Source: Betaproteobacteria bacterium (lineage in GTDB: Bacteria; Pseudomonadota; Gammaproteobacteria; Burkholderiales; Usitatibacteraceae). From it: 44,181 nucleotides of DNA. Numbering within the stretch: the stretch's first letter is position 1; every line of letters begins with the position of its first letter. The stretch spans positions 1 to 44,181 of the forward strand of contig JAEUNB010000030.1 in the NCBI GenBank assembly GCA_016790625.1. Reading direction: 5' to 3'. The notes below the pieces were generated by a model, which worked only from the letters and a program-made list of their open reading frames with translations, had not been told where the DNA came from and made no database searches. Shown here piece after piece: positions 4,484 through 42,421 of this stretch. The translations under genes and the position numbers were made by a program.

Positions 4484-4491
4484 ATGAACGG

Positions 4492-19699: not shown

Positions 19700-22600
19700 C
19701 TAAAGAGCGGCTGGAATTTTGGCAGGCGTTGTTGGCGTAATCCGGAACCAGATCGCGTACAGCGCTGGCAAAAACAGAAGCGTCAACAGGGTGGCGACGA
19801 ACAGTCCGCCCATGATGGCGACGGCCATCGGGCCAAAAAAATCGGATCGGATCAGCGGGATCATGGCCAGAATGGCTGCCAGCGCGGTCAGTGCGATAGG
19901 TCGCAAACGCCGCACCGTTGCGTCGATGATGGCCGTAAACGGCGCATGCCCGGCTTCAATGTCGCGTTCAATCTGGTCGATCAGGATCACGGAATTGCGC
20001 ATGATCATGCCAAATAAGGCGATGGTGCCGAGCATGGCGACGAAGCCAAACGGTTTGTTGAATACCAGCAGCGCAGCGGCTACGCCGATCAGGCCCAGCG
20101 GCGCAGTGAGCACCACGAGAATGACTCGCTGAAAGCTCATCAATTGGATCATCAAGACGGTGAACACCACACCGAGGAACAGTGGCATGCCGGCGTTGAT
20201 CGATGCTTGGCCCTTGGCACTTTCCTCCACCGCGCCGCCAACATCGATACGATACCCAGATGGCAGCTTGGCGCGTATCGGTTCCAGTAGGGCATTGACC
20301 TGTGCCGTGGCGGTGGCAGGTTGCAATCCCGCCTGATAAATGTCGGCGCGAACGGTAATGGTCGGCAGACGATCGCGACGCCAGATGACACCATCTTCGA
20401 ATTCGTAGCGCACCTTGGCAATTTGGGTCAGCGTGACCGCTTTGCCGGTGCGGGTTGGCACGGCCAGGCTTTCAAGCAGGTGCAGTTTTGCGCGCTCGTC
20501 GGCCGGGCCGCGGATCAGGACTTCGATCAACTTGTCGCGTTCGCGGTAGAAGGTTGCCTGCACGCCGTTTAGCGATGTGTTCAGGAAAGCCGCCAGCTCC
20601 TGGGAAGAGACGCCCAGCAAGCGTGCCTTATCCTGATCCACTTCCAGCTTGATCACTTTTGAACGCTCATCCCAGTCGAACTGCACATTGGCCAAGCCGG
20701 AATTGGTACGCATGGCATCGGCCACTTGAGCGGCCACGTCGCGTATCACCGGAATTTCCTCGCCCGACACGCGGAACTGAACGGGGAAGCCCACGGGCGG
20801 ACCGTTCTGCAGTTCCAGGACCCGTGTGCGGATCTCGATAAAGTCTTTCTGAAACAGCGCGATGAGGCGGCTACGCAGTTCGTTGCGCGCCTTTACGCTA
20901 TTGGTGGTGACGACAAATTGCGCAAAGCTCGCGGCCGGTAGCTGCTGGTCCAACGGGAAATAGAAACGCGGGCTGCCGGTACCGACATAGCTCACGTAGT
21001 TGTCGAACAGATCCTTTTGTCCATCAAGATATTTTTCAAGCTTCTTCACCTGAACTTCAGTGGCCTGGAAAGATGAGCCTTCAGGCAGCTTCAGATCCAC
21101 CAGCAGTTCTACCCGGGTTGATGAGGGAAAGAACTGCTGCTGAACGAATTTGAACGCGAAGATGGAAGCAAAAAACAATAGCGCGGTGACGGCGATAACG
21201 GTCTTGCGATGAGTTACACACCATGCGACCGTCGCGCGGAAGCGCTGGTAGAAGGGGGAGTTGTAAACGTCATGCTCGCCGTGTACCGACGGGTCATGTG
21301 TGGCTGAGTCGCTTTGATCGGCGGTGGCGTCGGGCGGAGCAATGCGTATTGCCAGGCGCTGGCCGATCAGCGGAATACGTCCGATCCACGCCGCAATGCG
21401 CCGTGTGCGCGGCGTGATGACGGGTTTGCCATTTTTGTAGTCGGGCAGGAAGTGATAGCCAAGGTAAGGAATGAAGATGACCGCGGCAAACCAGGAAATG
21501 ATCAGGGCGAGCGAGGTCACTTGAAAGATCGAGCGGGTGTATTCACCAGTGCCGGACCGCGCGGTGGCAATGGGCAGGAAACCGGCAACGGTCACCAACG
21601 TGCCGGTGAGCATCGGGAATGCTGTTGACGTGTAGGCAAAGCTTGCGGCGCGAACCCGGTCCCAGCCCTGTTCCATTTTGATGGCCATCATTTCTACGGC
21701 AATGATGGCGTCGTCCACCAGCAAGCCGAGCCCAAGAATCAAAGCGCCTAGCGAAATCTTGTGCAGGCCGACATCCAGCAAATACATGAAAAAGAATGTC
21801 AGCGACAGCACCAGGGGAATCGACAGTGCGACCACCAGACCGGTGCGTACGCCCAGGCTGAAGAAGGTTACTGCCAGCACGATGATGACGGCTTCGGCGA
21901 GCGAGCGTACAAATTCTCGAATGCTCGCACTGACCGCACGAGGCTGATCATTGACACGGTGCAACTCAAGGCCGATGGGCAGTGTTTCTTCCAGTTTGTG
22001 CAGGGTGGAATCCAGATTCTTGCCCAGTTGGACTATGTCACCACCCTGGCGCATCGATACGCCTAGCCCTAACGACTCTTTGCCGAGATAGCGCATTTTA
22101 GTGAAAGGCGGATCCGCAAAGCCGCGTTTGACAGTTGCAATGTCGCCAATCTTGAACACACGGTTGTTGGCGCGGATGGTGAAGTTCTTGATCGCATCGA
22201 CGCTGTCGAAGCTGCCGGTGGCACGAACAAAGATCTTGTCGGTCGCGGTCTCAAAGGCGCCGCCGGGAGCAACCGCATTTTGTGCCTGCATGGCGGCAAT
22301 GATCGAGGCGCCATCCAAGCCAAGCGTGGCGAGCTTGATGTTCGACAGCTCGATGAAAATCTTCTCCTCCTGCTCGCCAATGATGTCGACTTTTGCCACA
22401 TCGGGGATGCGCAGCATTTCCCGGCGTACGCGATCGGCGAACAGTTTTTTGTCTGCGTAGCTGTAACCTTCGCCGGTAATGGCAAAGATGTTGCCGAACG
22501 TATCGCCGAATTCATCGTTGAAGAACGGCCCCAGTACTCCCTGCGGCAATGTCTGGCGAATGTCACCGACCCGCTTGCGCACCTGGTACTGAGTTTCGGG

Positions 22601-22921
22601 GACGGCTGATGCTGGCGCTGCATCATTGATGGCGAAGAAAATCAGCGATTCGCCGGGACGAGAATAGCTACGGACAAAATTGACGTTGGGCACTTCCTGC
22701 AGCTTGCGCTCGAGCCGCTCGGTGACCTGCTGATCGACTTCAGCTGCCGACGCACCCGGCCATATGGTCCGGATGGTCATGAATTTGAACGTGAACGGTG
22801 GGTCTTCAGACTGGCCCAGCCGGCCATAGGCAAAAACGCCCATCAGCCCCATCACCAGAATCATGTAAAGCACCAGCGGCTGGTGCTTCAGGGCCCACTC
22901 TGACAAATTGAAGTTTTTCAT
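19700..22921 (-). CDS. RND efflux transporter permease (AcrB/AcrD/AcrF superfamily)
   Basis: About 1073 aa from the ATG at codon 14 of track ORF (MKNFNLSEWALKHQPLVLYMILVMGLMGVFAYGRLGQSEDPPFTFK). 12-TM RND topology with two large periplasmic loops. The track start at 22960 is TTG. The start coordinate is derived from track arithmetic. Confidence 0.88.
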   Translation of the reverse strand: MKNFNLSEWALKHQPLVLYMILVMGLMGVFAYGRLGQSEDPPFTFKFMTIRTIWPGASAAEVDQQVTERLERKLQEVPNVNFVRSYSRPGESLIFFAINDAAPASAVPETQYQVRKRVGDIRQTLPQGVLGPFFNDEFGDTFGNIFAITGEGYSYADKKLFADRVRREMLRIPDVAKVDIIGEQEEKIFIELSNIKLATLGLDGASIIAAMQAQNAVAPGGAFETATDKIFVRATGSFDSVDAIKNFTIRANNRVFKIGDIATVKRGFADPPFTKMRYLGKESLGLGVSMRQGGDIVQLGKNLDSTLHKLEETLPIGLELHRVNDQPRAVSASIREFVRSLAEAVIIVLAVTFFSLGVRTGLVVALSIPLVLSLTFFFMYLLDVGLHKISLGALILGLGLLVDDAIIAVEMMAIKMEQGWDRVRAASFAYTSTAFPMLTGTLVTVAGFLPIATARSGTGEYTRSIFQVTSLALIISWFAAVIFIPYLGYHFLPDYKNGKPVITPRTRRIAAWIGRIPLIGQRLAIRIAPPDATADQSDSATHDPSVHGEHDVYNSPFYQRFRATVAWCVTHRKTVIAVTALLFFASIFAFKFVQQQFFPSSTRVELLVDLKLPEGSSFQATEVQVKKLEKYLDGQKDLFDNYVSYVGTGSPRFYFPLDQQLPAASFAQFVVTTNSVKARNELRSRLIALFQKDFIEIRTRVLELQNGPPVGFPVQFRVSGEEIPVIRDVAAQVADAMRTNSGLANVQFDWDERSKVIKLEVDQDKARLLGVSSQELAAFLNTSLNGVQATFYRERDKLIEVLIRGPADERAKLHLLESLAVPTRTGKAVTLTQIAKVRYEFEDGVIWRRDRLPTITVRADIYQAGLQPATATAQVNALLEPIRAKLPSGYRIDVGGAVEESAKGQASINAGMPLFLGVVFTVLMIQLMSFQRVILVVLTAPLGLIGVAAALLVFNKPFGFVAMLGTIALFGMIMRNSVILIDQIERDIEAGHAPFTAIIDATVRRLRPIALTALAAILAMIPLIRSDFFGPMAVAIMGGLFVATLLTLLFLPALYAIWFRITPTTPAKIPAAL

Positions 22922-22956
22922 TGGTTTGACGGCTTGTCGTTGCGACGGGCTGGCCG

Positions 22957-24156
22957 TCAATTACCAAAAAAGGACGTATTTACCTTGGCCTGCACCGGCG
23001 GATTGTCTGTCGGGGCGTACGCTACTTTGCCGTCGCCAGTGACTTGCGGGTCCGAAATCGGCTTGACCATTTCTCCCTCACGCAGCTTGTGCACGCCAGC
23101 GGCCACAATGACATCGCCGATTTTCACGCCATCCTTGATCAGAGCCAGGTTTTCCTTGTACTGCACGACGGTCACGGGCTTGAGGCTCACCTTGCCATCT
23201 GCCGCTATCAACCAGACGCCGGTAGTGTTGCCTTTGACGTAGAGAGAGGAGAGCGGCACGGCAAGCACACCCGCATCGTTGGCCCCCAGAAATACCGCGT
23301 AGGCGCTCATGCCGAGTTGCACGATGTCGTCGGCTTTCTGCAAAGTAACGCGCACGGCATAAGTGCGGGTAATCGGATCTGCTGCGGCGCTCACTTCCCG
23401 TACCTTGGCGGCGTAGTACTTGTCAGGTTGGGACCAGGTTGCGACACGCAGTTCTTTCTTTGCCGCGCTATTGGAGCCTGCTGTACGGAATTCAGCAATC
23501 TTGGCTTCCGGCACGCTGATCGAAAGCTCTTTTTCCGCCGGATTGGCGATACGCATGACGGCCTGTCCTTGTGCCACCACCTGTCCCGATTCCGCCATGA
23601 CTTGCGTTACCACGCCATCCTGCTCAGCCGTCAGCACAGCATAGCCGGCCTGGTTGATCGATACACTGGCTTGCGCGCGGGCAGATTCGAGGCGGGCTTT
23701 GGCCGCATTGGCCACATTCAGCTTTTGATCGAGCGCCGACTGGCTCACGAATCCTTTGACGAAGAGATCCTTGAAGCGTTTGTATTCCGCATCGGCGAAG
23801 GTGGCTTCTGTGTCAGCAGCCGTTACGTTTGCTGTCGACGCATCAGCGGCCAGCTTTGAGTCCTGCGGGTCAAGTCTTGCCAGCGGCTGGCCGCGACGAA
23901 CGACACTACCTTGGTCGACCAGACGTGCGACCATTTTCCCGCCAATGCGGAAAGCGTGATCCGCTTCGTGACGCGCACGAATTTCGCCTGGGTACACATC
24001 GGCATCCACGCCGGAATTTGCGCCGATTTTGTAGGACAGCGCGGGTCGTAGGGTTGTGCCGGCCGCTTCGGGCTTCGAGCAGCCCGCAAGGAATGCTGTC
24101 ACCACAAAAATTGGTGTAAGAAGACTAATTAAATATTTGTTTTTAATGATATTCAT
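22957..24156 (-). CDS. RND efflux periplasmic adaptor (membrane fusion protein), lipoprotein
   Basis: The ATG at codon 5 of the track ORF has GGGAG upstream. MNIIKNKYLISLLTPIFVVTAFLAGC carries a lipobox. Typical MFP lipoyl/coiled-coil region (RLDPQDSKLAADASTANVTAADTEATFADAEYKRFKDLF). Confidence 0.85.
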   Translation of the reverse strand: MNIIKNKYLISLLTPIFVVTAFLAGCSKPEAAGTTLRPALSYKIGANSGVDADVYPGEIRARHEADHAFRIGGKMVARLVDQGSVVRRGQPLARLDPQDSKLAADASTANVTAADTEATFADAEYKRFKDLFVKGFVSQSALDQKLNVANAAKARLESARAQASVSINQAGYAVLTAEQDGVVTQVMAESGQVVAQGQAVMRIANPAEKELSISVPEAKIAEFRTAGSNSAAKKELRVATWSQPDKYYAAKVREVSAAADPITRTYAVRVTLQKADDIVQLGMSAYAVFLGANDAGVLAVPLSSLYVKGNTTGVWLIAADGKVSLKPVTVVQYKENLALIKDGVKIGDVIVAAGVHKLREGEMVKPISDPQVTGDGKVAYAPTDNPPVQAKVNTSFFGN

Positions 24157-24239
24157 GACTACTCCCAACTCAGGTTACGACATGAAGCAAGCAGACAAGC
24201 GAATGCACAGAATCACAAAAATATAACTGACTGGTCGGT

Positions 24240-30934: not shown

Positions 30935-32569
30935 TCACGCGCGTTGCTTGCGGTCTTCGCGAATCATTTCGCTCGCGCGCTCGGCAATCATGATGGTCGG
31001 CGAATTGGTATTGCCGGACACGATGGTCGGCATGATTGAAGCATCGACCACGCGCAGCCGGTCAATGCCGTGCACTCGCAGGCGTGCGTCGACGACTGCC
31101 ATCGGATCGCTGGCGACACCCATCTTGCAGGTACCAACCGGATGAAAAATGGTGGTGCCGATATTGCCGGCGGCGCTGATCAGCGCTTCGTCGCTGGCGT
31201 AGGCAGGACCGGGCATGAATTCCTGTGGCTGGTATTTCGCCAATGCGGGAGAGGCGGAGATGCGTCGCGTCAGCTTGAGCGAATCGATGGCGACTTGCCG
31301 GTCGGTGTCGGTGGACAGATAGTTGGGTTGAATGGCCGGCGCCTTCAACGGATCGTTGCTCTGGATGCGGACGAATCCGCGGCTCTCGGGCCGCAGATTG
31401 CATACGCTGGCGGTGAAGGCGGGAAAGGGATGCGGCGGATCACCGAACTTGTCCAGCGACAGCGGTTGCACGTGATATTCGACGTTGGCACTTGCCATAT
31501 CCGGGCTCGATTTGGCAAAGGCCCCCAACTGCGATGGCGCCATCGTCAGTGGCCCGGTACGGAACAATGCGTATTGCAGCCCCATTTTGGCTTTGCCCAA
31601 CCAACTGTTGGCTTGTTCGTTCAGCGTCGGCACACCTTGCACTTTGAATGCCATGCGCAGTTGCAGGTGATCCTGCAGATTCTCGCCGACACCCGGCAGG
31701 ATGTGGCGTATGTCGATGCCCTGTTGCTGCAGCAGCCGGCCCGGGCCTATGCCGGAAAGCTGTAGCAGCTGTGGCGAATTGATCGCACCGGAGGCGAGGA
31801 TGGTTTCCATGCGCGCTTCGGCAACGAATGTCTCACCATTGCGCAGGAATTCGATGCCGCGGGCTTGGCGCGAACCGTCTCGGGTGTTCATGACAATCTC
31901 TTTGGCATGAACGCCGGTCAGCACGGTGAGATTCGGCCGTTGCATCGCCGGACGCAAAAAGGCTTTTGATGCATTCCAACGCACGCCAGTGCGCTGATTC
32001 ACCTGAAAGCGCGCCGAACCGAAATTGTCGCCGCCGTTGAAATCGGCAATTTTCGGAATGCCGCATTGCTCCGCCGCGTCGCGCCATGCATGGAGGATCT
32101 TCCAGTCCAGCCGCTGCTCTTCCACCCGCCATTCGCCGCCGGCGCCGTGAATATCGCTGCCGCCGCCGTAATGATCCTCGGAGCGTTTGAAAACCGGAAA
32201 CACATCGTTCCACGACCAGCCTGGGTTGCCCAGCGCCGCCCATTCGTCGTAATCGCGTGCCTGACCGCGCATGTACACCATCGCGTTGATCGACGAGCAG
32301 CCGCCCAGCACCTTGCCGCGGGCGTACAGGATCGAACGACCATTGAGGCCCTCGCATGGCTCGGTGCGATAACACCAGTCGGTGCGCGGATTGCCGATGC
32401 AATACAGATATCCGACCGGAATATGAATCCAGATCCAGTCATCCTTGCCGCCGGCTTCCAGCAACAGCACGCTGACATCGGGGTCGGCCGAGAGCCGGTT
32501 GGCCAGTACGCAGCCGGCGGTGCCGGCACCAACAATGACGTAGTCGAAGGTGCCGAATGATTGGGGCAT
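30935..32569 (-). CDS. GMC-family FAD oxidoreductase (choline/alcohol dehydrogenase-like)
   Basis: 544 aa from the internal [46 protein letters not shown]...[18 protein letters not shown]...; C-terminal HPVGTCKMG matches the GMC signature. Confidence 0.88.
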
Positions 32570-32694
32570 GACTTCCAAAGTGTATGCGTGGCGTTGCGGC
32601 GACCAGCCGTTAGAATAGAACTGAATAGTGCCACATGCGGGCCTCACAATAAATTGCGGCGCTTCGTACCGCGCCGGGCATTCAGGAGGGTGGG

Positions 32695-34545
32695 TTGAAC
32701 GTTTCGGCAATCGTCGACAAAGGGCTGAAACTGCGTACGTCGCAGAACATCGTCCAGTTGGCAGTGGCGATTTTGCTGTTTTCGTTCTTGTTGCGCGTGC
32801 CGACCACTGAGCTGGCAATTCTCAGCGTGCTTGAAAGACTGTCATTCGACTTGCAGATCAAGCTGCTGCGCGAAATACGTCCTCAGCCGGCCGCGGTCGA
32901 ACCGGTCTTAATTGGCATTGACGAAGGTACGGAGGATGCATTCGAGGAGCCGTTGGCGATGTGGCATCGGCATCTGGGGAAGACCATGCAGGCGCTGGCC
33001 ATTGCCAAGCCAAAGCTGGTGGGAATGGACGTGGTGTTGCCACCGAAATCGTTCGACAAAATTCTGCCGGGTCTCGATTTTGCGTTTGTCGTTGGATTGA
33101 GGAGATTGCAGGATGTCGCGCCGCTGGTGGTGGTGAACACAGTTGATCGGACCGGCAAACTGGCCTCCATTCACCCGCCTTTTCTCCGCATGCTCGGGGA
33201 CGATGCGTTTGGCCTTGATAAGCACCTTGAAGACCCTGATCGCGTGTCGCGGCGCTTCAGCGAGAGCGAGGTGCTGATAAAAGGCGCTGACTTTCCAACG
33301 TTTGTCGGACGCATTGCGCGTGTGCTCGGGCGCGAAGTGCAGGAAGGCTATATCGACTTCACGGTAGGCGGTCTCGTCCAGTATGTGCCGATCCAACAAG
33401 TGATCGGCTGGCTGGAGGCCGGCGATATCGAACAATTGCGGCGCCGTTTTGGCGGGCGAGTGGTTTTGATTGGCAACGTAACCCAGACCCAGGATCGCTG
33501 GAATCTGCCGGTGCCGTTGTCGGACTGGGAGCGGCTCAACTCAGGTGAGCTCAAGCTCAATCAGCCGGGTGTCATGGTCCATTTCCAGAGCCTGCGCAGC
33601 ATGTTGGGCGATGGTTTGATCGTGCCAATACCGGTCTGGGTGAAGTGGTCAATCTGCGCACTGCTGCTTACGTTTGTCTTCGTGCCATCCAACTGGCGCA
33701 CTTATGTGTTCGCGTTCCTGGTTGCACCGATTCTGTTTTTTGTCATTTCAGTGACCCTGATCACAGCGAAAATTCTGATTCCGGCCGTAACCTTTCTCGT
33801 GTTGCTGTGGATTTCGGTTATGGTCGGCGCGGTCGCGGATGGCACACGAACCTTGCTGGAGAAGAATCGGCTTAAGCGGTCATTTTCCGGCAGTGTTTCC
33901 CCTGCGGTCCTGCACGAAATGCTGGCGGGAAACCTGGCGGGAGGCGTATCGGCAAAGACGGCGGAGATATGCGTGATGTTCAGCGACATTCGTGGTTTTA
34001 CGGGGTTGTCCGAAACACTCTCCCCCGAAGCGGTCACCAGCCTGCTGACGCGCTACTTCGACAGCATGGTGAAATGCGTGCACCGCCACGACGGCACCAT
34101 GGATAAATTCATGGGTGACGGCATGATGGTGCTGTTTGGCGCGCCGAGGCGGGCGGGCAATATTTGCGTAAACGCCGTCAATTGCGCCTTCGATATGGTG
34201 GAAGAGCTCAAGAAACTCAACGAGGAGTTCGCGGCCGAAGGGCTGCCCCACGTCGAGATTGGAATCGGCATAAACTACGGCAAAGTCGTGGTTGGCAATA
34301 TCGGCTCGACCGAACGGCATAACTATTCAGCTATCGGCGACGCGGTCAATGTGGCATCCCGGGTTGAGGGATTGACCAAACGGCTGGGAAAGCCGATTGT
34401 GTTTACCGATTCGGTCAAAGAGCAGTTGGGTCAGGGGTTCGACATGATCGATTTTGGCGAGCAGCCGATAAGAGGACATAGTCCCATGCGGCTGTGGGGT
34501 GTGCAGGCGGTACCACCAAGACTGGCGGCGCCTGCGGGGCATTAG
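32695..34545 (+). CDS. CHASE2 sensor-domain class III adenylate cyclase
   Basis: 616 aa, TTG start 5 nt after AGGAGG. N-terminal TM helix, then a CHASE2-like extracytoplasmic region (VLIGIDEGTEDAFEEPLAMWHRHLGKTMQALAIAKPKLVGMDVVL), then a block of about three TM helices (nt 33640-33850). The cyclase domain carries FSDIRGFTGLSE, DKFMGDGMMVLFGAP and YSAIGDAVNVASR. Lys in DKFMGD and Ser in YSAIGD suggest ATP specificity (class IIIb-like). Confidence 0.85.
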   Translation: MNVSAIVDKGLKLRTSQNIVQLAVAILLFSFLLRVPTTELAILSVLERLSFDLQIKLLREIRPQPAAVEPVLIGIDEGTEDAFEEPLAMWHRHLGKTMQALAIAKPKLVGMDVVLPPKSFDKILPGLDFAFVVGLRRLQDVAPLVVVNTVDRTGKLASIHPPFLRMLGDDAFGLDKHLEDPDRVSRRFSESEVLIKGADFPTFVGRIARVLGREVQEGYIDFTVGGLVQYVPIQQVIGWLEAGDIEQLRRRFGGRVVLIGNVTQTQDRWNLPVPLSDWERLNSGELKLNQPGVMVHFQSLRSMLGDGLIVPIPVWVKWSICALLLTFVFVPSNWRTYVFAFLVAPILFFVISVTLITAKILIPAVTFLVLLWISVMVGAVADGTRTLLEKNRLKRSFSGSVSPAVLHEMLAGNLAGGVSAKTAEICVMFSDIRGFTGLSETLSPEAVTSLLTRYFDSMVKCVHRHDGTMDKFMGDGMMVLFGAPRRAGNICVNAVNCAFDMVEELKKLNEEFAAEGLPHVEIGIGINYGKVVVGNIGSTERHNYSAIGDAVNVASRVEGLTKRLGKPIVFTDSVKEQLGQGFDMIDFGEQPIRGHSPMRLWGVQAVPPRLAAPAGH

Positions 34546-34572
34546 CAGTTTGGGATGTTTTTTCGGGAGACC

Positions 34573-35427
34573 ATGATGAATACAAAACTGATACTGGCAG
34601 CAACGGCGTTTGCCTCGTTCGCACTCACGACGCAGGCGCAGAGCGGCATTGCTTTTATTACCGACGTCAAAGGCGAAGCGGCCATGGATGCGGGCAAGGC
34701 GACGCTGATGGCGGAGCTGAAAAAAGGCGCCCGGGTCACTTGCGCCAAGGAATGCATGGTCGGTGTGATGTATCTGCTGTCCGGCAAAGAGTATGTGCTT
34801 AAAGGGCCGGGAGACTTCGTGGTTGGCGACAACGAGGTTTCGGCCAAGATCGGCCCGCCGCCAACCGTGCGCGAGACAAAATGGAAAGTGTCGTCGCAGG
34901 TTGTCGCGCAAACCGCGCAGTCTTCCAGCGCATCGATTCGCATGCGCAGCCTGGGTGGCGGCAATAAGGCAGAGGCCCCGTTGCCGGCCGAGCGCCTGAT
35001 TTATCCGCGCGACACCAAGGTGGCAACACTGCAGCCGGCCTTCCGCTGGGCCTCGGCCAACGCCAAGGGACCGTTCGAGTTCGAACTGAAGGCCGCCGGC
35101 AGCGCCAAGCCGGTGCACAAGGCGAAGTCAAGCTCGCTCGGTCTCACCTTGCCCGGCAATGTGCGGCTGCAGCCGGACATGGAATACAGCTGGGTGGTGA
35201 AATCCGGCGCCGTGGACGTGGGCATGACGACGTTCAAGACCCTGCCGACGCATGCGCTGGAATTGACGCAGAAACGCAAGCCCGACGACAAGGCGCCATT
35301 TTCGGACTGGCTGCTGTTTGCCCTGACGCTGAAGGATGTAAACGCTGATCAGGATGCGGCGGAAGTATGGGCCAAGCTGGCCAAGGAGCGCCCGGACTTG
35401 CCGGAATTGGCGGCATTGGCAAAATAG
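34573..35427 (+). CDS. Secreted protein of unknown function: FecR-like N-terminal half, DUF928-like C-terminal half (tentative)
   Basis: ATG 27 nt after the cyclase stop, with GGGAGA upstream. Signal peptide MMNTKLILAATAFASFALTTQAQ. N-terminal half GIAFITDVKGEAAMDAGKATLMAELKKGARVTCAKECMVGVMYLLSGKEYVLKGPGDFVV. C-terminal half has ATLQPAFRWASANAKGPFEFELK and LQPDMEYSWVV. The family resemblance is from memory only. Confidence 0.7.
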   Translation: MMNTKLILAATAFASFALTTQAQSGIAFITDVKGEAAMDAGKATLMAELKKGARVTCAKECMVGVMYLLSGKEYVLKGPGDFVVGDNEVSAKIGPPPTVRETKWKVSSQVVAQTAQSSSASIRMRSLGGGNKAEAPLPAERLIYPRDTKVATLQPAFRWASANAKGPFEFELKAAGSAKPVHKAKSSSLGLTLPGNVRLQPDMEYSWVVKSGAVDVGMTTFKTLPTHALELTQKRKPDDKAPFSDWLLFALTLKDVNADQDAAEVWAKLAKERPDLPELAALAK

Positions 35428-35455
35428 CCGCCCAGCACGACTTTAGTCCTACAAG

Positions 35456-35496
35456 AACGGCGTTCCGACGTGGTCGGTGCGCCGTTTTTTGCTTTT
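35456..35496 (+). terminator. Rho-independent terminator
   Basis: AACGGCG-tt-CCGAC-gtg-GTCGG-tg-CGCCGTT followed by TTTTgcTTTT. It starts 29 nt after the 35427 stop. Confidence 0.75.
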
Positions 35497-35566
35497 AGAC
35501 ACGATTGAGTCATCGCTAGGGGGCACGATTTGCGCAATAATCGGGAGAAATACCTATAGCAGTCTT

Positions 35567-37747
35567 ATGCGCACCTTTGAAAAATCGCGAGTAGTGCTTG
35601 GCCGTATTGGCGCCGCCCTGGCGCTGGGCATGGCTTTGCTCGCAGCGCAGATGTCGTGGGCATTCGATAACGAACGTGTAGCGCTGGTGATCGGCAACGA
35701 CAGTTATCCGAACGAGCCGCTGAGAAATGCGGTCAACGATGCGCGCGCGATGCAGAAGTCATTGCAGGAACTGGGCTTCAAGGTGGTGTTCAAGCCCAAC
35801 GCCGACATCAACACCATGCGCGCGGCTGCGGTGGAGTTTGCCAAGATGATGGATGGCGCTTCGGCGGCGGTGTTTTTCTACGCCGGTCACGGCATTCAGT
35901 ACGCCAACAAGAACTACCTGATTCCGGTCGATGCCAAGCTGATGTCCGAGCCGGAGATCGTGTATTACGCGATGGAAGTCGGACAGATCCTCGACAGCAT
36001 GGAAGAGGCCAAGGTGCGGCACAAGTTCATCGTCCTCGACGCCTGCCGCAACAATCCCTTCCGCAACCTGTTCACCTCGTCCACCGGCTTGGCGAAGAGC
36101 ACGCGCGTGCCGCCGGGCACCTTTATTTCCTACGCAGCGGCGGCAGGCGCGGTGGCGCTCGATGGCGAGGGTGAGAACGGCCTCTATACGAAGCATTTGC
36201 TTAAGGAAATCCGTACACCGGGTTATACCGCCAGCGCCATGTTCGAACGCGTTGGATCGCAGGTTGCGCAGGAAAGCAACGGCCGTCAGTATCCGGAAAA
36301 CACCTCCACGCCCTCACCGCGCGGTGCCTTCTTCTTTGCCGAACGTGCGACCACTGCCGTCGCCACCGCCGCCCCTGCGGCAACTGCGGTATCGAGTGAG
36401 ACCGCAGCGCTGCTTGAGCGCGATCTCTGGAACGACATCAAGGACAGCAGCAAGATCGAGGATTATCAGGATCACCTGCAGAAATTCCCCAACGGCATTT
36501 TCGCCAGCCGCGCACGCAGCCGCATCGATAACCTGCGCCAGGAGCGTTCCCAGCGACAGGTAGCCGCCGCGCCGCTGTCGGCGAATCCTGCGGCAGCCAC
36601 CGCGCCGGTACTGGTGGCAGAGCGGCCGAACGAACCCGCTGCGCGTCCTGCTGCCAATCCTGTACCTGCCAGCACGCAGGTGGCGCAGCCCCTGGCACCG
36701 GCATCCGCGCCGATTCAGGCACCCGCACCTGCCAGCCCCGCGCCGACGCAAACTGCGGCAACCAAGCCGGCGGAGCCGGTACGAATTGCGACCGCTACCC
36801 AGGTGCCCAGCGCCGCCAGCGAGGTCCGCAGTCTTGAGCCACGTACGGCAGCTGCTTTGCCTGCTGCGCCGAGCTCAGGCGCGCCGGCTGCCAATCAGGT
36901 TGCCGCGCTGTCACCGGAACAGAAAACTTCGCTGCCGCCGGTGCCGGTATGGCCCAAGTTTGTGACCGGGCCGATCGATTATCCCAATGGTGACCGCTAT
37001 GTCGGCGAATACCGCATCGAGTCCGACAAGAAAGAGGTGTTGCACGGTAAGGGCGAATACGTCGCCAAGGGCTTCCGCTATAACGGCGACTTCAAGGACA
37101 ACAAGAAGCAGGGCAAAGGCGTGTACGTCTGGTCGGATGGCGCCAAGTACACCGGCGATTTTGCCGATGACCAGGCTTCCGGCAAGGGTGTGTGGGAATT
37201 CGCATCCGGTGACCGCTATGAGGGCGATGTGGTCAATGCGGTGATGGTCGGCAAAGGCGTGCTGATTTCCAAGGATGGTTCGAAGTTCGATGGCACGTTT
37301 GCCGACGGCAAGCCGCATGGTCGCGGGACGTACGTTTTTGCCAACGGCGACAAATATGAAGGCGGTATCGCTGCCGGCAAGAAGTCCGGCAAAGGCACCT
37401 ACATTAGCAAGAACGGCGACCGTTTCGAGGTCACCTTTGTCGACGATGTCGCGCAGGGCAGCGGTTCATACGACTTCGCCAACGGTGACCGCTACGAGGG
37501 TGAGATCAAAAATGGCGCGCTATCGGGCAAGGGCAAGTACTTCCATTCCGGTGGCGAGCGTTCGGAAGGCAATTACCTGAACGGGCTGCTCAACGGGCAG
37601 GGCACTTTTTACTTCAAGGACGGCTCCTGGTTCGAGGGGACGTTCGAAGAAGGGCTGAAGCGTGCCAAGGGCATCATCATCTACAAGGATGGCACCAAGC
37701 GTGCCGCCGAAATTGTCAACGGCAGCATGACCGTGGCGGGCGGCTGA
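35567..37747 (+). CDS. Exported caspase-family (peptidase C14) protein with Pro/Ala-rich linker and 10 C-terminal MORN repeats
   Basis: 726 aa from the internal ATG. Signal peptide MRTFEKSRVVLGRIGAALALGMALLAAQMSWA. The caspase fold has the catalytic His (AVFFYAGHGIQ) and Cys (FIVLDACRNNPF). A linker of about 130 aa is rich in A/P/T/Q. Then come ten 23-aa Y.G.f.....GkG MORN units. Confidence 0.85.
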   Translation: MRTFEKSRVVLGRIGAALALGMALLAAQMSWAFDNERVALVIGNDSYPNEPLRNAVNDARAMQKSLQELGFKVVFKPNADINTMRAAAVEFAKMMDGASAAVFFYAGHGIQYANKNYLIPVDAKLMSEPEIVYYAMEVGQILDSMEEAKVRHKFIVLDACRNNPFRNLFTSSTGLAKSTRVPPGTFISYAAAAGAVALDGEGENGLYTKHLLKEIRTPGYTASAMFERVGSQVAQESNGRQYPENTSTPSPRGAFFFAERATTAVATAAPAATAVSSETAALLERDLWNDIKDSSKIEDYQDHLQKFPNGIFASRARSRIDNLRQERSQRQVAAAPLSANPAAATAPVLVAERPNEPAARPAANPVPASTQVAQPLAPASAPIQAPAPASPAPTQTAATKPAEPVRIATATQVPSAASEVRSLEPRTAAALPAAPSSGAPAANQVAALSPEQKTSLPPVPVWPKFVTGPIDYPNGDRYVGEYRIESDKKEVLHGKGEYVAKGFRYNGDFKDNKKQGKGVYVWSDGAKYTGDFADDQASGKGVWEFASGDRYEGDVVNAVMVGKGVLISKDGSKFDGTFADGKPHGRGTYVFANGDKYEGGIAAGKKSGKGTYISKNGDRFEVTFVDDVAQGSGSYDFANGDRYEGEIKNGALSGKGKYFHSGGERSEGNYLNGLLNGQGTFYFKDGSWFEGTFEEGLKRAKGIIIYKDGTKRAAEIVNGSMTVAGG
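36989..37700 (+). repeat. Array of 10 MORN repeats (69-nt coding period)
   Basis: YVGEYRIESDKKEVLHGKGEYV, YNGDFKDNKKQGKGVYVWSDGAK, YTGDFADDQASGKGVWEFASGDR, YEGDVVNAVMVGKGVLISKDGSK, FDGTFADGKPHGRGTYVFANGDK, YEGGIAAGKKSGKGTYISKNGDR, FEVTFVDDVAQGSGSYDFANGDR, YEGEIKNGALSGKGKYFHSGGER, SEGNYLNGLLNGQGTFYFKDGSW, FEGTFEEGLKRAKGIIIYKDGTK. Confidence 0.85.
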
Positions 37748-38326: not shown

Positions 38327-39238
38327 TCAGCGTAAGCGTGCCAGCGCTTCGCGGATTTTCGGCAATGCTGCTCGTGCGGCATCTTCGCCGCGCTTGATGC
38401 ACATAAGACGGTATTCCTGACTGATGCTGGCGTAGTAGCCCAGATCGGGATGGATCAGCACGTCGGCGAAAGCCGCTTGCGCGTCGACTTTTCCCGCGCG
38501 CATGCGATCGCGTACCGCCCAGGTTGCAGGTGCCTCGGGCGGAATGGCCGAGACGTACGCCGACACATCCACTGCAATCACCACTTGTGCACCGAGCTCA
38601 CGCGCCGCCTTGATCGGCACCGGCTCGGCTTCGTCACCGTCGTGATATTCGACGCCGAGTATGCGCACCGGCGAAAACTGGCGCGGCGTGGCGCTGGATG
38701 CGCGCACTGCGGCTGCGGTGCTGCCACGATTGAACAGCGTGAGCTGATTGCCGGTGCGGGTCGCCGCCGCAACCACCAGCTTGCGCTTGAAGCCATCCAG
38801 CGGTTTGTTGTCGGTGCGCTCGGCCACAAAGTCCGCGACCGCGCTGCCGTTGCCGGTGAGGCCGGATGAGGAAACGCCGATAAAGCGCTTGGGATCGATA
38901 TCGAGCGCGGTCTGCTCGATATCGCGTGCGCTGGCACCGTTGGCATACATCGCTCCCAGCATGGCGCCTACGCTGGAGCCGACCACCAGATCGGTCTCGA
39001 TGCCGTTGGCCTCCAGCACTTTCAGCACACCGACATGGGCAAAACCGCGCGGCCCACCGGCGCCCAGCACCAACGCGACACGGGGTCGCTGGGAGTCGGT
39101 GTAAGGCACGAATTTCGGCGCATCGGGGCCGTTGTATTCGGCAATGCCCCCAGCGCAGCCGGCGAGTAAGACAAGCAGTCCGGCGAGTGACTTGCGCGAG
39201 AATACGATTGCACGCATAGTGGCGAACGTTTTTTTCAT
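38327..39238 (-). CDS. Patatin-like phospholipase, lipoprotein (RssA-like)
   Basis: 303 aa from the internal ATG of track ORF 38327..40672. MKKTFATMRAIVFSRKSLAGLLVLLAGC carries a lipobox. VALVLGAGGPRGFAHVGVLKVLE (oxyanion G-G-x-R), GSSVGA nucleophile elbow, YHDGDEAEP (Asp dyad). Confidence 0.82.
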   Translation of the reverse strand: MKKTFATMRAIVFSRKSLAGLLVLLAGCAGGIAEYNGPDAPKFVPYTDSQRPRVALVLGAGGPRGFAHVGVLKVLEANGIETDLVVGSSVGAMLGAMYANGASARDIEQTALDIDPKRFIGVSSSGLTGNGSAVADFVAERTDNKPLDGFKRKLVVAAATRTGNQLTLFNRGSTAAAVRASSATPRQFSPVRILGVEYHDGDEAEPVPIKAARELGAQVVIAVDVSAYVSAIPPEAPATWAVRDRMRAGKVDAQAAFADVLIHPDLGYYASISQEYRLMCIKRGEDAARAALPKIREALARLR

Positions 39239-39262
39239 TGCACAGAATTTATCACGACGCCC

Positions 39263-40843
39263 ATGAGCAAATCCTACGACGCAGTGATCATCGGCGGTGG
39301 CCACAATGGCCTGGTCTGCGCCTGCTATCTGGCGGCGCGTGGCCTGAAGGTGAGGGTACTGGAGCGTCGCCACGTGGTGGGCGGCGCAGCGGTCACCGAA
39401 GAATTTCATCCGGGATTCCGTAACTCGACCGCCAGCTATACCGTCAGCCTGCTGAATCCCAAAGTGATCCGCGACCTCAAGCTGGCGGAACATGGGCTGA
39501 AAGTGGTTGAGCGGCCGTTCGGCAATTTCCTGCCGTTGAACGATCGCGAATTCATCAAGGTGGGCGGCGGTCTCGCGGCAACGCAGGCGGAAGTGGCGCG
39601 ATTCTCGAAGCGCGATGCCGAGCGATTGCCGGACTACTACCGCATGCTCGATGGCGTCGCGGCAGTGCTGAAAGATCTGCTGCTGGAAACGCCCCCTAAC
39701 GTCGGCGGTGGCATTGCCGACATGCTGCAGGCATGGAAAGTCGGCAAACGTTTCAAATCCTTGGACATGGCTGCGCGGCGCGATGTACTTGATCTCTTCA
39801 CCAAGAGCGCCGGCGACGTGCTTGATTACTGGTTCGAGTCCGACCCGATCAAGGCCTGCTTCGGTTTCGACGGCGTGGTGGGCAACTACGCGTCGCCGTA
39901 CACGCCGGGAACCGCTTATGTGTTGCTGCACCACGTGTTTGGCGAAGTGAACGGCAAGCCCGGCATCTGGGGCCACGCGGTCGGCGGCATGGGGGCGATC
40001 ACGCAGGCAATGGCGAGGGAAGCGGTTGCACGCGGGGTGGAGATTTCGCTGGATGCGGCGGTCGCAAAAGTCGAGGTCAGTGACGGAAAAGCGACTGGCG
40101 TCGTGCTGGAAGACGGCACGGTGATTTCTGCCAAACGGGTGGTGTCGAATCTCAATCCTAAACTGCTGTTCGGCAAACTGGTCTCGGGTGCCGACACAAC
40201 TGCTGAATTCGGCCAACGCATCGAAGCATACAAAGTTGGGTCCGGCACGTTCCGCATGAACGTTGCACTGTCGGAACTGCCGAAATTCTCCTGTCTGCCG
40301 GAAGCCGGCCCGCACTTGTCGTCGGGCATCATCATGGCGCCGTCGATGCGCTATATGGAGCAGGCATTTTTCGATGCGAAGACCTTTGGCTGGTCGAAAA
40401 AGCCGATTGTCGAAATCCTGATTCCAAGCACGGTTGACGATTCGCTGGCACCGGCGGGGCAGCATGTCGCGAGTCTCTTCTGCCAGCACGTCGCGCCGAC
40501 GCTGCCGGATGGCCGCAGTTGGGACGACTACCGCGAAGAGGTGGCGGATTTGATGGTAGCCACCGTCAATGGATTCGCGCCCAATTTCAAGGCCAGCGTG
40601 ATCGCACGGCAAATCCATTCGCCGCTCGATTTGGAGCGCAAGTTTGGTCTTGTAGGTGGGGACATCATGCACGGCGCGTTGACACTGGATCAGCTGTTCA
40701 GCACCCGGCCGGTAATGGGTTACGGCGACTATCGCACGCCGGTCAAGGGCTTGTACCAGTGCGGTTCAGGTACGCATCCGGGCGGCGGGGTCACTGGGAT
40801 TCCGGGGCACAACGCCGCACGCGAAATCCTCAAGGACGGCTAG
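39263..40843 (+). CDS. FAD/NAD(P)-binding oxidoreductase, phytoene-desaturase (CrtI)-like family
   Basis: 526 aa. SYDAVIIGGGHNGLVCACYLAARGLKVRVLERRHVVGGAA (Rossmann GxGxxG), then ...GIWGHAVGGMGAITQAMA...CGSGTHPGGGVTGIPGHNAA. Confidence 0.82.
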   Translation: MSKSYDAVIIGGGHNGLVCACYLAARGLKVRVLERRHVVGGAAVTEEFHPGFRNSTASYTVSLLNPKVIRDLKLAEHGLKVVERPFGNFLPLNDREFIKVGGGLAATQAEVARFSKRDAERLPDYYRMLDGVAAVLKDLLLETPPNVGGGIADMLQAWKVGKRFKSLDMAARRDVLDLFTKSAGDVLDYWFESDPIKACFGFDGVVGNYASPYTPGTAYVLLHHVFGEVNGKPGIWGHAVGGMGAITQAMAREAVARGVEISLDAAVAKVEVSDGKATGVVLEDGTVISAKRVVSNLNPKLLFGKLVSGADTTAEFGQRIEAYKVGSGTFRMNVALSELPKFSCLPEAGPHLSSGIIMAPSMRYMEQAFFDAKTFGWSKKPIVEILIPSTVDDSLAPAGQHVASLFCQHVAPTLPDGRSWDDYREEVADLMVATVNGFAPNFKASVIARQIHSPLDLERKFGLVGGDIMHGALTLDQLFSTRPVMGYGDYRTPVKGLYQCGSGTHPGGGVTGIPGHNAAREILKDG

Positions 40844-40852
40844 TTGGTTGCG

Positions 40853-42421
40853 ATGCGACTCATTGCGCGCCTGCTGATCGCGTTGATCATTGCTTTGCCG
40901 GTTTCGGCAAAAACGCTGCGCTTCGCCACGCAGAACGATGCCACCACGCTGGACCCGCACGCGGCAAACCTGTTGCCGAATGCGCGCATCACGCAGAACG
41001 TCTATGAGGGGCTGGTGGCGCGTGATGCTGACTTCAATATCGTCCCCAGTCTGGCGCTATCGTGGAGCCAGCCAGATGCGAAGACCTGGCGTTTCAAGCT
41101 GCGTCCCGGCGTGACCTTTCACGATGGCAGCGCATTCACCGCCGACGATGTCGTGTTCTCGGTCGAGCGCAGCTTGCATCCGCTATCGCAGCTCAAGTTC
41201 ACGCTGCAGGGCGTGCAATCGGCCCGGCGTGTCGATGACCTGACGGTGGATCTGGTGATGAAGGAGCCGAATCCGGTGCTGCTGAATCACCTCTATTTCA
41301 TGCGCATCATGTCGCGCCAGTGGTGCACGAAGCACGGTGTGTTGGCGCCGCAGAACTATCGCGACAACGAAGATACGTTTGCCGCGCGCAATGCCAACGG
41401 CACCGGCCCGTTCAAGGTCGAGTTGCGGCAGCCGGACGTCAAAACCGTGTTGCGCGAAAACCGCCAATGGTGGAATCGCGCTTCCCCATCGCGCGGCAAT
41501 GTGTCGGAAGTGATCTGGCTGCCGATGAAGTCGAATGCCACACGCATTGCCGCGCTGCTATCAGGCGAAGTGGATTTTGTTGTCGATCCGCCGGTGCAGG
41601 ATGTCGCGCGACTGAAGAAATCGCCGAATCTGAAAATAGTGCAGTCGGCCGAGGCGCGAATTCACTATCTCGGCTTCGATCTCTCTCACGACAATCTGCA
41701 GTACGGCCCGAAGAGCGGTAATCCGTTCAAGGACCTGCGTGTACGTCAGGCGGTCGTGCATGCGATCGATGTCAACGCCATTCGCGACAAGGTGTTCCGC
41801 GGATTCACCATCCCCACCGGTTCGCTGATTGCGCCGCAGGTACACGGCTACGTTAAGGAACTGGATACGCGTCTGCCGCTTGATCGCGCCAAGGCAAAAC
41901 GATTGCTGGCGGAGGCCGGCTATCCGCAGGGGTTCGACATCACGCTGGATTGCCTGAATACCGCGCCCAATTCTGAGCTGTGTCAGGCAATTGCGCCCAT
42001 GCTGACCAGTGTCGGTATTCGGGTCAACGCCAACCTGATGCCGATCACAACCTTCATCCCCAAGGTGCAGAAAGCCGATACCAGCTTCTTCTGGTACAGC
42101 TGGGGGGCCGTGACGTTCGATGCGCTCTACACATTGCAGGGGCTGCTGCACACCTACAGCGGCGATCAATCGGGCAATGGCGACAGCAATCTGGGCCGCT
42201 ATTCGAATCCGGCGCTGGATGCATTGATTGCGAAGATCAAAGTTGAGCCCGACAAGGTGGTGCGCGACCGCTTGATACGTGATGCGCTGGAAGTCGTGGT
42301 GCGCGAATTGCCGGTCGTGGTGCTTCACCAGCCGGTGATTCCATGGGCGATGCGTGCGACGGTCGAAATTGGCGCATCTCCCAACAACATCCCGGCGTTC
42401 GACCGATTTCGCATGCGTTGA
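40853..42421 (+). CDS. ABC transporter substrate-binding protein, family 5 (peptide/nickel/opine type), orphan
   Basis: About 522 aa. Signal peptide MRLIARLLIALIIALPVSA, then KTLRFATQNDATTLDPHAANLLPNARITQNVYEGLV...SWSQPDAKTWRFKLRPGVTFHDGSAFTADDVVFS. A TTG at 40844 directly abuts the upstream stop; the ATG at 40853 is preferred. Confidence 0.85.
   Translation: MRLIARLLIALIIALPVSAKTLRFATQNDATTLDPHAANLLPNARITQNVYEGLVARDADFNIVPSLALSWSQPDAKTWRFKLRPGVTFHDGSAFTADDVVFSVERSLHPLSQLKFTLQGVQSARRVDDLTVDLVMKEPNPVLLNHLYFMRIMSRQWCTKHGVLAPQNYRDNEDTFAARNANGTGPFKVELRQPDVKTVLRENRQWWNRASPSRGNVSEVIWLPMKSNATRIAALLSGEVDFVVDPPVQDVARLKKSPNLKIVQSAEARIHYLGFDLSHDNLQYGPKSGNPFKDLRVRQAVVHAIDVNAIRDKVFRGFTIPTGSLIAPQVHGYVKELDTRLPLDRAKAKRLLAEAGYPQGFDITLDCLNTAPNSELCQAIAPMLTSVGIRVNANLMPITTFIPKVQKADTSFFWYSWGAVTFDALYTLQGLLHTYSGDQSGNGDSNLGRYSNPALDALIAKIKVEPDKVVRDRLIRDALEVVVRELPVVVLHQPVIPWAMRATVEIGASPNNIPAFDRFRMR

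Follow-up and report, generated by a model that had tools for sequence, protein, structure and literature searches.

A divergent mtx-type gene trio recurring across Proteobacteria: a CHASE2 adenylate cyclase, a secreted MtxA-family protein and an exported caspase-fold protease as a probable periplasmic switch of cAMP synthesis

Three consecutive forward-strand genes were analysed in a 44,181-nucleotide stretch of DNA (the window; contig JAEUNB010000030.1 of assembly GCA_016790625.1) from a Betaproteobacteria bacterium of the Usitatibacteraceae. The genes encode a predicted CHASE2 receptor-type class III adenylate cyclase (gene 1), a secreted protein of the MtxA family (gene 2) and an exported caspase-fold protease with MORN repeats (gene 3). 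Judged from sequence, the trio represents a diverged version of the 'mtx' cluster, which is found repeatedly among Proteobacteria, and it probably forms a periplasmic protease-controlled switch of cyclic AMP (cAMP) synthesis. The C14-MORN protease, the highly divergent MtxA-like partner and the different gene order are new in the window locus. An earlier reading of the bare sequence (the first-pass annotation) had described gene 2 as a FecR/DUF928-like protein and had proposed either cyclic-nucleotide signalling or a regulated-death module. The features of the trio are the following.

32695..34545, + strand: gene 1, CHASE2 receptor-type class III adenylate cyclase, 616 amino acids (aa) (Pfam, hydropathy)
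34573..35427, + strand: gene 2, secreted MtxA-family protein, 284 aa (profile, profile-profile and fold searches)
34930..34950, + strand: family motif A-x-x-x-M-R-[G/S/A] of gene 2, residues 120-126 (ASIRMRS), with the R125 codon at 34945-34947
35458..35500, + strand: intrinsic terminator between genes 2 and 3, hairpin AACGGCG-TT-CCGAC-GTG-GTCGG-TG-CGCCGTT, then TTTTTGCTTTT
35567..37747, + strand: gene 3, exported caspase-fold protease, 726 aa (Pfam C14 + MORN)

Gene 2 encodes a distant MtxA homologue

The best start of gene 2 was the ATG at 34573, which lies 27 nt past the gene-1 stop, and the N-terminus of the product is a Sec-type signal peptide (aa 1 to ~22: MMNTKLILAATAFASFALTTQA); both the gap and the signal peptide had been noticed in the first-pass annotation and are borne out by the sequence. 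The AlphaFold2 model (predicted local distance difference test, pLDDT, 88.6; predicted template-modelling score, pTM, 0.82) is laid out as a beta domain (aa 27-101), a helix (aa 108-127), a low-confidence linker (aa 128-140), an Ig/fn3-like sandwich (aa 141-223) and a TPR-like helical hairpin bundle (aa 226-283). A Foldseek search of this model against the PDB returned MtxA (4z29) as the top match, with an E-value of 2.4e-5 and a probability of 1.00.

At the 90 % identity level the family of gene 2 fell into 711 clusters; at 50 % identity there were 455 representatives with E <= 1e-3, nearly all of ~280 aa and with the same layout. A diverse sample of 66 members was taken, and each member was scanned against Pfam. 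The 66-sequence family profile matched 4z29 over its full length (E 5.9e-7; profile 23-277 to chain 20-276), and hhalign comparison of the family with the MtxA open reading frame (ORF) gave 94.9 % probability and an E-value of 4.7e-8 over 249 columns. The hidden Markov model (HMM) of the family also picked up the MtxA ORFs of two Magnetospirillum mtx loci (L058 and L059). The window protein itself and MtxA are ~15 % identical. Taken from the profiles and the predicted fold, gene 2 is a distant MtxA homologue, an identification which the first-pass annotation did not make. MtxA is covered in Pfam by the models DUF7354 (its N-terminal region), MtxA_IG-like and MtxA_C, and the beta domain of gene 2 (aa 27-101) is equivalent to DUF7354. 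The window protein had zero Pfam or NCBIfam matches even at E = 10, the MtxA and DUF928 models included; its membership in the MtxA family is therefore placed at the superfamily level, as a predicted distant branch. The MtxA_IG-like model was touched by 2 of the 66 family members (best E 0.0057).

The FecR assignment (PF04773) of the first-pass annotation had to be discarded: no match was obtained at E <= 10, and a single member of the 66 matched at E 0.092. When the N-domain was modelled alone, the fold search returned no significant structural neighbour and neither a FecR nor a PupR structure (best E 0.04). The label 'DUF928-like' survives weakly at the family level, where 14 of the 66 members matched DUF928 (PF06051; best E 3.6e-6), and fails for the window protein itself. 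These matches suggest that DUF928 is distantly related to the Ig-like module only of the gene 2 family. Among the other Pfam matches in the sample, Ig and fn3 models were found in several members and TPR models in a few.

The literature view is that MtxA is specific to magnetotactic bacteria, with 'no homology', and MtxA homologues have been reported from only five organisms (PMC4439547). The family delineated here is large and made up of secreted proteins; MtxA forms one of its branches and is not magnetotactic-specific.

Domain architecture of genes 1 and 3

Gene 1 starts at a TTG codon, 7 nt after AGGAGG. Pfam analysis revealed a CHASE2 domain (PF05226; 62.2 bits against a cut-off of 26.3) at aa 31-328 and a Guanylate_cyc domain (90.4 bits), the cytoplasmic cyclase domain, at aa 421-601. 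Hydropathy analysis located a first transmembrane (TM) helix at aa 19-37 and a hydrophobic three-TM block from aa 312 to ~385, a topology that would place the CHASE2 domain (aa 31-328) in the periplasm. Class III cyclases carry two metal-binding Asp residues, an adenine-specifying Lys, and transition-state Asn and Arg residues. The catalytic residues of gene 1 (D431, K471, D475, S545, N552 and R556) were conserved in 54-58 of 58 homologues; both metal Asp residues, the Asn and the Arg occurred in 58/58 and the Lys in 54/58, while the second specificity position was Ser or Thr. By these residues gene 1 is predicted to be a class III adenylate cyclase. A phmmer search of PDB sequences returned no solved relative of the CHASE2 region. 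To our knowledge, the CHASE2 sensor has had no known ligand since its definition in 2003.

The real start of gene 3 is the ATG at 35567, as the GTG at 35477 used by the mechanical ORF falls within the terminator region. Its signal peptide spans aa 1-32 (MRTFEKSRVVLGRIGAALALGMALLAAQMSWA, ending in SWA directly before FDNE). The Peptidase_C14 domain (129 bits against a cut-off of 21.4) occupies aa 37-248 and contains the catalytic dyad, His108 in YAGHG (35888-35890) and Cys160 in LDACRNNPF (36044-36046), conserved among homologues in 50/50 and 48/50, respectively. The C14 domain is followed by a helical motif and a linker rich in Ala and Pro (aa ~270-470), and then by the MORN region (131 bits), which consists of ten 23-residue repeats at aa 475-708 (nt 36989-37690). 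By this domain and dyad, gene 3 belongs to the C14 peptidase family. Matches of genes 1 and 3 to NCBIfam were sub-threshold only.

The closest solved structure to the caspase domain by sequence was the MALT1 paracaspase (E 9e-14). The residues equivalent to the MALT1 S1 pocket, D58, D158 and D199, were acidic in 47-50 of 50 homologues, and this acidic, MALT1-like pocket leads us to predict cleavage after Arg or Lys, that is, a basic P1 specificity. The enzyme resembles MALT1 and the metacaspases/orthocaspases, which are Arg/Lys-specific C14 enzymes, in its His/Cys dyad and in the acidic residues at the three S1 positions. Those enzymes are cytoplasmic, whereas the window enzyme carries a Sec signal peptide and C-terminal MORN repeats.

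The domain content, TM layout, signal peptide and ten MORN repeats given for genes 1 and 3 in the first-pass annotation were thereby recovered, its profile-HMM check detecting both CHASE2 and C14 above cut-off. So was its statement that all three products have extracytoplasmic parts, a placement predicted from signal peptides or membrane topology.

Conservation of the three-gene association

Forty-four species-representative loci from Usitatibacteraceae, from other Burkholderiales metagenome-assembled genomes (MAGs) and from the complete genome GR16-43 were compared. They were gathered with 11 closer gene 2 sequences, which biases the set towards the Burkholderiales lineage. A CHASE2 cyclase lay directly ahead of the gene-2 homologue in 41/41 loci having enough upstream DNA, and a C14 caspase followed the gene-2 homologue within <= 2.5 kb in 36 of the 38 loci having enough downstream DNA. 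In close relatives (66-75 % identity) the trio was kept, but the entire neighbourhood was kept too, and these loci were discounted as evidence of conservation because the whole region is syntenic there. In a sister clade (L037-L049; 36-49 % identity) the window's flanking genes were mostly undetected, with weaker MFS and FlK matches among the flanks of L045 and L049, and the order cyclase, gene 2, caspase-MORN was kept. Gene 2 of this clade is tandemly duplicated between the cyclase and the caspase-MORN gene; the paralogues are 33-49 % identical to the window protein, and both retain the Arg of the family motif. An example is the following.

10001-11589 of L042 (CP019169): tandem gene 2 paralogues

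Outside the lineage of the window, other architectures could be observed. In Arenicella-type Gammaproteobacteria, in which gene 2 is ~25 % identical, a CHASE2 cyclase and gene 2 are accompanied by a convergent gene for an exported C14 protease without MORN repeats. A fusion family of 19 clusters (~1250-1330 aa) combines a signal peptide, the gene-2 module, TPR repeats and a CHAT domain with intact dyad in a single protein. The fusion gene lies directly after a 586-aa CHASE2 cyclase in 3/3 loci, two of which are near-identical contigs with the same protein, and the genes around these loci are unrelated to the window's neighbours. Finally, the Magnetospirillum mtx locus was found in metagenomes (L058 and L059, with 100 % and 87 % identity to MtxA) in the order mtxA, CHASE2 cyclase and a TPR + CHAT protein of ~1300 aa starting with a signal peptide. 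The swap between C14 and CHAT together with the fusion ties the MtxA-like module specifically to a caspase-fold protease.

An unlinked caspase, adjacent only through the inherited synteny of one lineage, was weighed against these data. Most of the 44 loci indeed belong to a single family-level lineage (Usitatibacteraceae and related Burkholderiales) in which the region is syntenic. The triad also turns up between other flanking genes, in further classes of Proteobacteria, with another type of caspase-fold protease and in fused form, and we consider this explanation the least probable of those discussed here. Because the module persists where the flanks differ, the association was judged independent of synteny. 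The adjacency of the triad is thus, as far as sequence comparison goes, a conserved functional association and not a strain-specific one, in line with what the first-pass annotation had proposed. In the predicted module, the CHASE2 cyclase and the MtxA-like protein are the constant core; the third member, nearly always present, is an exported, repeat-bearing caspase-fold protease whose family may be C14 or CHAT and which may be fused to the MtxA-like module.

Several minor observations were made at these loci. The Arenicella-type caspase gene heads an operon with genes for a 242-aa unknown protein, an outer-membrane Gcw_chp protein (PF09694) and unknown proteins of ~180 and ~205 aa.

5474-8116 of L051 and 12531-15343 of L053: Arenicella-type caspase operons

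An 80-aa ORF without a Pfam match lies between the cyclase and the fusion gene in two of the fusion loci (L055 9596-9838 and L056 3784-4026) and is absent from the third (L057). A few kb upstream of the pair in L055 (1424-5698) are genes for a response-regulator-cyclase, a 113-aa cyclic-nucleotide monophosphate (cNMP)-binding protein and a SulP-STAS transporter that includes a cNMP-binding domain. Possible cAMP effectors of that organism are thus encoded near the pair. Upstream of mtxA, on the opposite strand of L058 (3074-7513), a methyl-accepting chemotaxis protein (MCP) with a dCache_3 sensor and a CheR-TPR methyltransferase are encoded, and these neighbours are the likely origin of the 'magnetotaxis' label.

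A conserved Met-Arg-small motif and the proposed mechanism

The gene 2 family carries a motif at the end of the conserved helix, directly before the gappy, low-confidence linker. Across the 66 diverse members, A120 was present in 61, M124 in 55 and a small residue (G/S/A) at position 126 in 59, while position 125 was Arg in 62 and Lys in 3. The Arg was kept in 70/70 gene-2-like ORFs of the fetched loci, including the tandem paralogues, the fusions and MtxA. The motif is a candidate protease cleavage site.

Trypsin is an Arg/Lys-specific protease. The linker of MtxA is trypsin-sensitive: trypsin took off residues 1-141 and left a stable Ig-like + TPR-like part, and full-length MtxA crystallised only after trypsin treatment (PMC4439547). 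The invariant basic residue at the linker edge, the acidic S1 pocket of the protease and the trypsin-cut linker of MtxA are among the reasons for which we favour a cleavage model, to which we give somewhat less than an even chance. The protease would process the MtxA-like partner of CHASE2 and so gate cAMP synthesis. In this model the MtxA-like protein may serve as the protein partner of CHASE2, either as co-receptor or as pro-ligand, and the MORN repeats of the protease (elsewhere TPR repeats) may act as an input module or as a targeting/localisation module. The exported protease would cut the MtxA-like protein at or near the Met-Arg-small motif ahead of the linker, separating the beta domain from the Ig-TPR module and altering the engagement of CHASE2 by its partner. 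The changed engagement could then switch the cytoplasmic class III cyclase and with it the cAMP level, and an effector whose gene lies at another place in the genome would read that level. That protease and partner generate or present the CHASE2 signal is the direction which we infer and which the evidence favours. A narrower version, in which periplasmic C14/CHAT proteases mature a secreted MtxA-like pro-ligand that is the physiological partner of CHASE2, is put forward tentatively.

A different use of the same parts is somewhat less probable than cleavage: gene 2 may be an adaptor or co-receptor that is not cleaved and forms a stable MtxA-like bridge between the protease and the CHASE2 receptor. 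The substrate would then be an envelope or foreign protein giving CHASE2-ligand fragments, or the CHASE2 ectodomain itself, in an irreversible manner like that of protease-activated receptors. The co-occurrence and fusion evidence fits such an adaptor equally, and if the MtxA-like module is a targeting subunit, its covalent fusion with TPR-CHAT would come naturally. The Ig and TPR domains of MtxA share a hydrophobic face that is suggestive of a protein-binding interface (PMC4439547), and the CHASE2 cyclases of Sinorhizobium meliloti answer an exogenous protein signal (PMC13001267). The pLDDT of the conserved helix was ~86 in the full-length model and below 50 in the N-domain-only model; the loss of confidence in the isolated domain indicates that the helix probably packs on the Ig-TPR module, so the conservation may be structural. 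An uncleaved adaptor leaves the invariant basic-then-small residues at the edge of a flexible, trypsin-accessible linker unexplained, and the module encodes no candidate alternative substrate.

Several points weigh against the cleavage model. If the helix is structural, as its modelled packing would allow, R125 could be conserved through packing. The S1 comparison relies on MALT1 pocket residues which we take to be D365, D462 and E500. Cleavage or binding between any two of the three proteins is something that we infer from their sequences. The one genetic test of a family member, in which mtxA was deleted from M. gryphiswaldense, revealed no phenotype under standard conditions (PMC4439547). 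The Pfam scan revealed no cNMP-binding protein among the main ORFs of the window, as the first-pass annotation had remarked.

The remaining points concern the independence of the protease gene. Gene 3 is split from genes 1-2 by a strong terminator and would form its own transcription unit here. RNA folding of the hairpin (35458-35490) with its T-run gave -24.2 kcal/mol and z -3.99, and 0/200 shuffles were equally stable; the consensus scan overlooked this terminator, already called in the first-pass annotation, because of its internal bulge, and folding revealed it. The Arenicella-type protease gene is convergent to the cyclase and gene 2 and stands in a separate operon with Gcw_chp and small unknown proteins, and two loci of the window's lineage (L033 and L036) retain the cyclase and gene 2 with unrelated genes in the place of the caspase. 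All three observations would suit an arrangement in which the sensor is made up of the cyclase and the MtxA-like protein, while the caspase-MORN protein is a cAMP-regulated or co-regulated periplasmic effector of, for example, envelope remodelling or protein turnover. We regard this as unlikely: the gene-2::TPR::CHAT fusion implies direct physical coupling beyond co-regulation, and the association survives the C14-CHAT swap, as expected of a mechanistic partner and not of a generic effector.

The regulated-death alternative of the first-pass annotation was also weighed. Caspase-fold proteases function in several bacterial defence systems. In a Pycsar-like scheme, a nucleotide signal would be made on attack and the caspase would act as a death or defence protease; in keeping with this, PycC models hit the cyclase domain, and a PADLOC caspase model hit the protease. 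The PycC matches represent general class III cyclase homology, and the caspase scored 48.4 bits against the model of the EACC1-associated type (NF047832), below its cut-off of 140. No adjacent cNMP-binding effector and no defence-island context were found. Every protease of the module examined (C14, CHAT or fusion) carries a signal peptide and would be exported, away from cytoplasmic targets. The setting is one of stable syntenic housekeeping genes with flank-like GC content and without mobile-element genes. Such a conflict role is thus very improbable, and the reading of the locus as a defence or abortive-infection system was rejected, the PADLOC scan having returned generic cyclase and caspase homology without an effector.

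Comparison with known systems

The mtx cluster was reportedly first described by Richter et al. in 2007. In Magnetospirillum, mtxA shares an operon with signal-transduction genes, and the gene after it encodes a CHASE2 adenylate cyclase (Davidov et al. 2015, PMC4439547). The magnetococcal mtx cluster consists of genes for a Sel1-domain protein, mtxA and an adenylate/guanylate cyclase (PMC5088516). The third mtx gene has been labelled 'Sel1 domain-containing protein' (PMC5088516) or included among 'putative signal transduction genes' (PMC4439547), not described as CHAT. In open-access text we found no paper that calls this gene a CHAT protease, none that extends the MtxA family beyond magnetotactic bacteria and their relatives, and none that describes a module in which caspase-fold proteases are linked with CHASE2, MtxA or DUF928.

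The window module shares with the mtx cluster (MtxA = MGR_0208, PDB 4z29; Magnetospirillum, Magnetococcus) a secreted protein with a signal peptide, beta domain, linker, and Ig-like and TPR-like parts, and the placement of this MtxA-family gene beside the genes for a class III cyclase of the CHASE2 type and for a repeat-bearing, exported caspase-fold protease. The two differ in gene order (cyclase, MtxA-like, protease in the window, but mtxA, cyclase, protease in Magnetospirillum) and in the protease, which is C14 + MORN in the window and TPR + CHAT, of the same fold class but another family, in Magnetospirillum. Furthermore, no magnetosome-related families were present among the Pfam hits of the window's ORFs, and the relatives of the window are Usitatibacteraceae and other Burkholderiales MAGs.

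There is precedent for CHASE2 receptors working with protein signals or partners, in the S. meliloti cyclases and in FecR-paired CHASE2 histidine kinases. CyaD1, CyaD2 and CyaK of S. meliloti, acting with NsrA and Clr, are CHASE2 class III cyclases with an envelope-perceived protein signal and cAMP output (PMC13001267). They differ from the present module in using the outer-membrane beta-barrel NsrA and the plant protein uL2, and neither an MtxA-like partner nor a caspase-fold protease has been reported there (PMC13001267). The window module has no adjacent NsrA-like gene, whereas the Arenicella-type loci do have the outer-membrane Gcw_chp gene. In the Burkholderia 'BiofilmReg' operon and in PA4035/PA4036 of P. 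aeruginosa, a CHASE2 receptor is likewise co-transcribed with a secreted beta-rich partner; this partner is of the (LysM-)FecR type, the output is a histidine kinase with a response regulator, and there is no protease (PMC5192318).

Cytoplasmic caspase-CHASE2 fusions are already known. The first-pass annotation had pointed to cyanobacterial neighbourhoods of CHASE2, DUF928 and CHAT proteins. A tblastn search of an annotated plasmid collection returned no match to gene 2 or the CHASE2 region. In the Nostoc punctiforme cluster the CHASE2 sensor gene does lie beside a DUF928 gene, without CHAT there (PMC5587647), and it differs from the window in that gene 2 itself has no DUF928 match.

The pathways Spatzle/Toll of insects and metacaspase-4/PROPEP1/PEPR of plants mature their ligands by proteolysis. 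By analogy, the window module may likewise use an extracytoplasmic protease to turn a pro-ligand into the form that engages its receptor, with a ligand and receptor non-homologous to those of either pathway. If the pro-ligand version of the model is true, it would be a bacterial counterpart of the Spatzle/Toll type, widespread in Proteobacteria and coupled to cAMP, and would give an extracytoplasmic caspase homologue of bacteria its first role in signalling.

The question of the CHASE2 ligand and that of MtxA function are joined by these results, as the MtxA family is encoded beside CHASE2 cyclases in every locus examined. MtxA is no longer to be counted among the magnetotactic-specific genes. 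The module offers an experimental entry point with three proteins, one predicted cleavage site and a cAMP read-out, relevant to signalling through CHASE2, to what the mtx cluster does and to the nearly unexplored extracytoplasmic caspase homologues of bacteria.

Gene neighbourhood of the module

Immediately upstream of the module are the following features.

30935-32569, - strand: GMC oxidoreductase gene, 544 aa (Pfam)
32570..32694: divergent intergenic region between the minus-strand GMC oxidoreductase gene and gene 1 (sequence reading)

The promoter of the gene 1-gene 2 operon presumably lies in this intergenic region, where a scan revealed no consensus sigma-70 promoter on the + strand. The true start of the GMC gene was placed at 32569 because its homologues in the relatives L001 and L004 are 542-544 aa long; the 627-aa mechanical ORF (30935-32818, - strand) is over-extended, and the real gene does not overlap gene 1. 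The minus-strand genes upstream of the module encode an M48 peptidase, MFS and EamA transporters and the GMC oxidoreductase. On the downstream side are genes for an FlK-type thioesterase, a patatin, an amine oxidase, an enoyl-CoA hydratase and a family-5 solute-binding protein (Pfam). GC content is even across the region, that of the module resembling its flanks. No mobile-element genes were found in the Pfam hits around the module. The module appears to be vertically inherited among housekeeping genes.

Downstream, the 781-aa mechanical ORF at 38327-40672 (- strand) is also over-extended: the real patatin gene is ~323 aa long (38327 to ~39300), and the upstream extension runs over the + strand amine-oxidase gene. 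The gene for the family-5 solute-binding protein (40844-42421, + strand), between those for the amine oxidase and the enoyl-CoA hydratase, was found among syntenic loci in L022 only and therefore represents a lineage-specific insertion or loss. In the syntenic relatives L001-L003, a 471-aa TPR protein and a 773-aa FecR-domain protein are encoded ~5 kb downstream of the module (L001 17475-20849). The window ends (44181) at about the point where the TPR gene would start, which places the true FecR protein just outside the window.

In the first part of the window, three ORFs of 278-402 aa (within 69-1841 and 3404-4612) had no Pfam match at E <= 1e-5. The 1131-aa product of 7674-11069 (+ strand) contains SBBP beta-propeller repeats, fn3 and dockerin domains, and the 1022-aa product of 11322-14390 (+ strand) contains an InlB B-repeat-like domain and fn3; both have the look of proteins that are secreted or sit on the cell surface. 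A 749-aa patatin + POTRA protein, with the architecture of a PlpD-like type Vd autotransporter, is encoded at 17393-19642 (- strand), adjoining a PhoX alkaline phosphatase gene (15516-17393) and a resistance-nodulation-division (RND) efflux pair (19700-24168).

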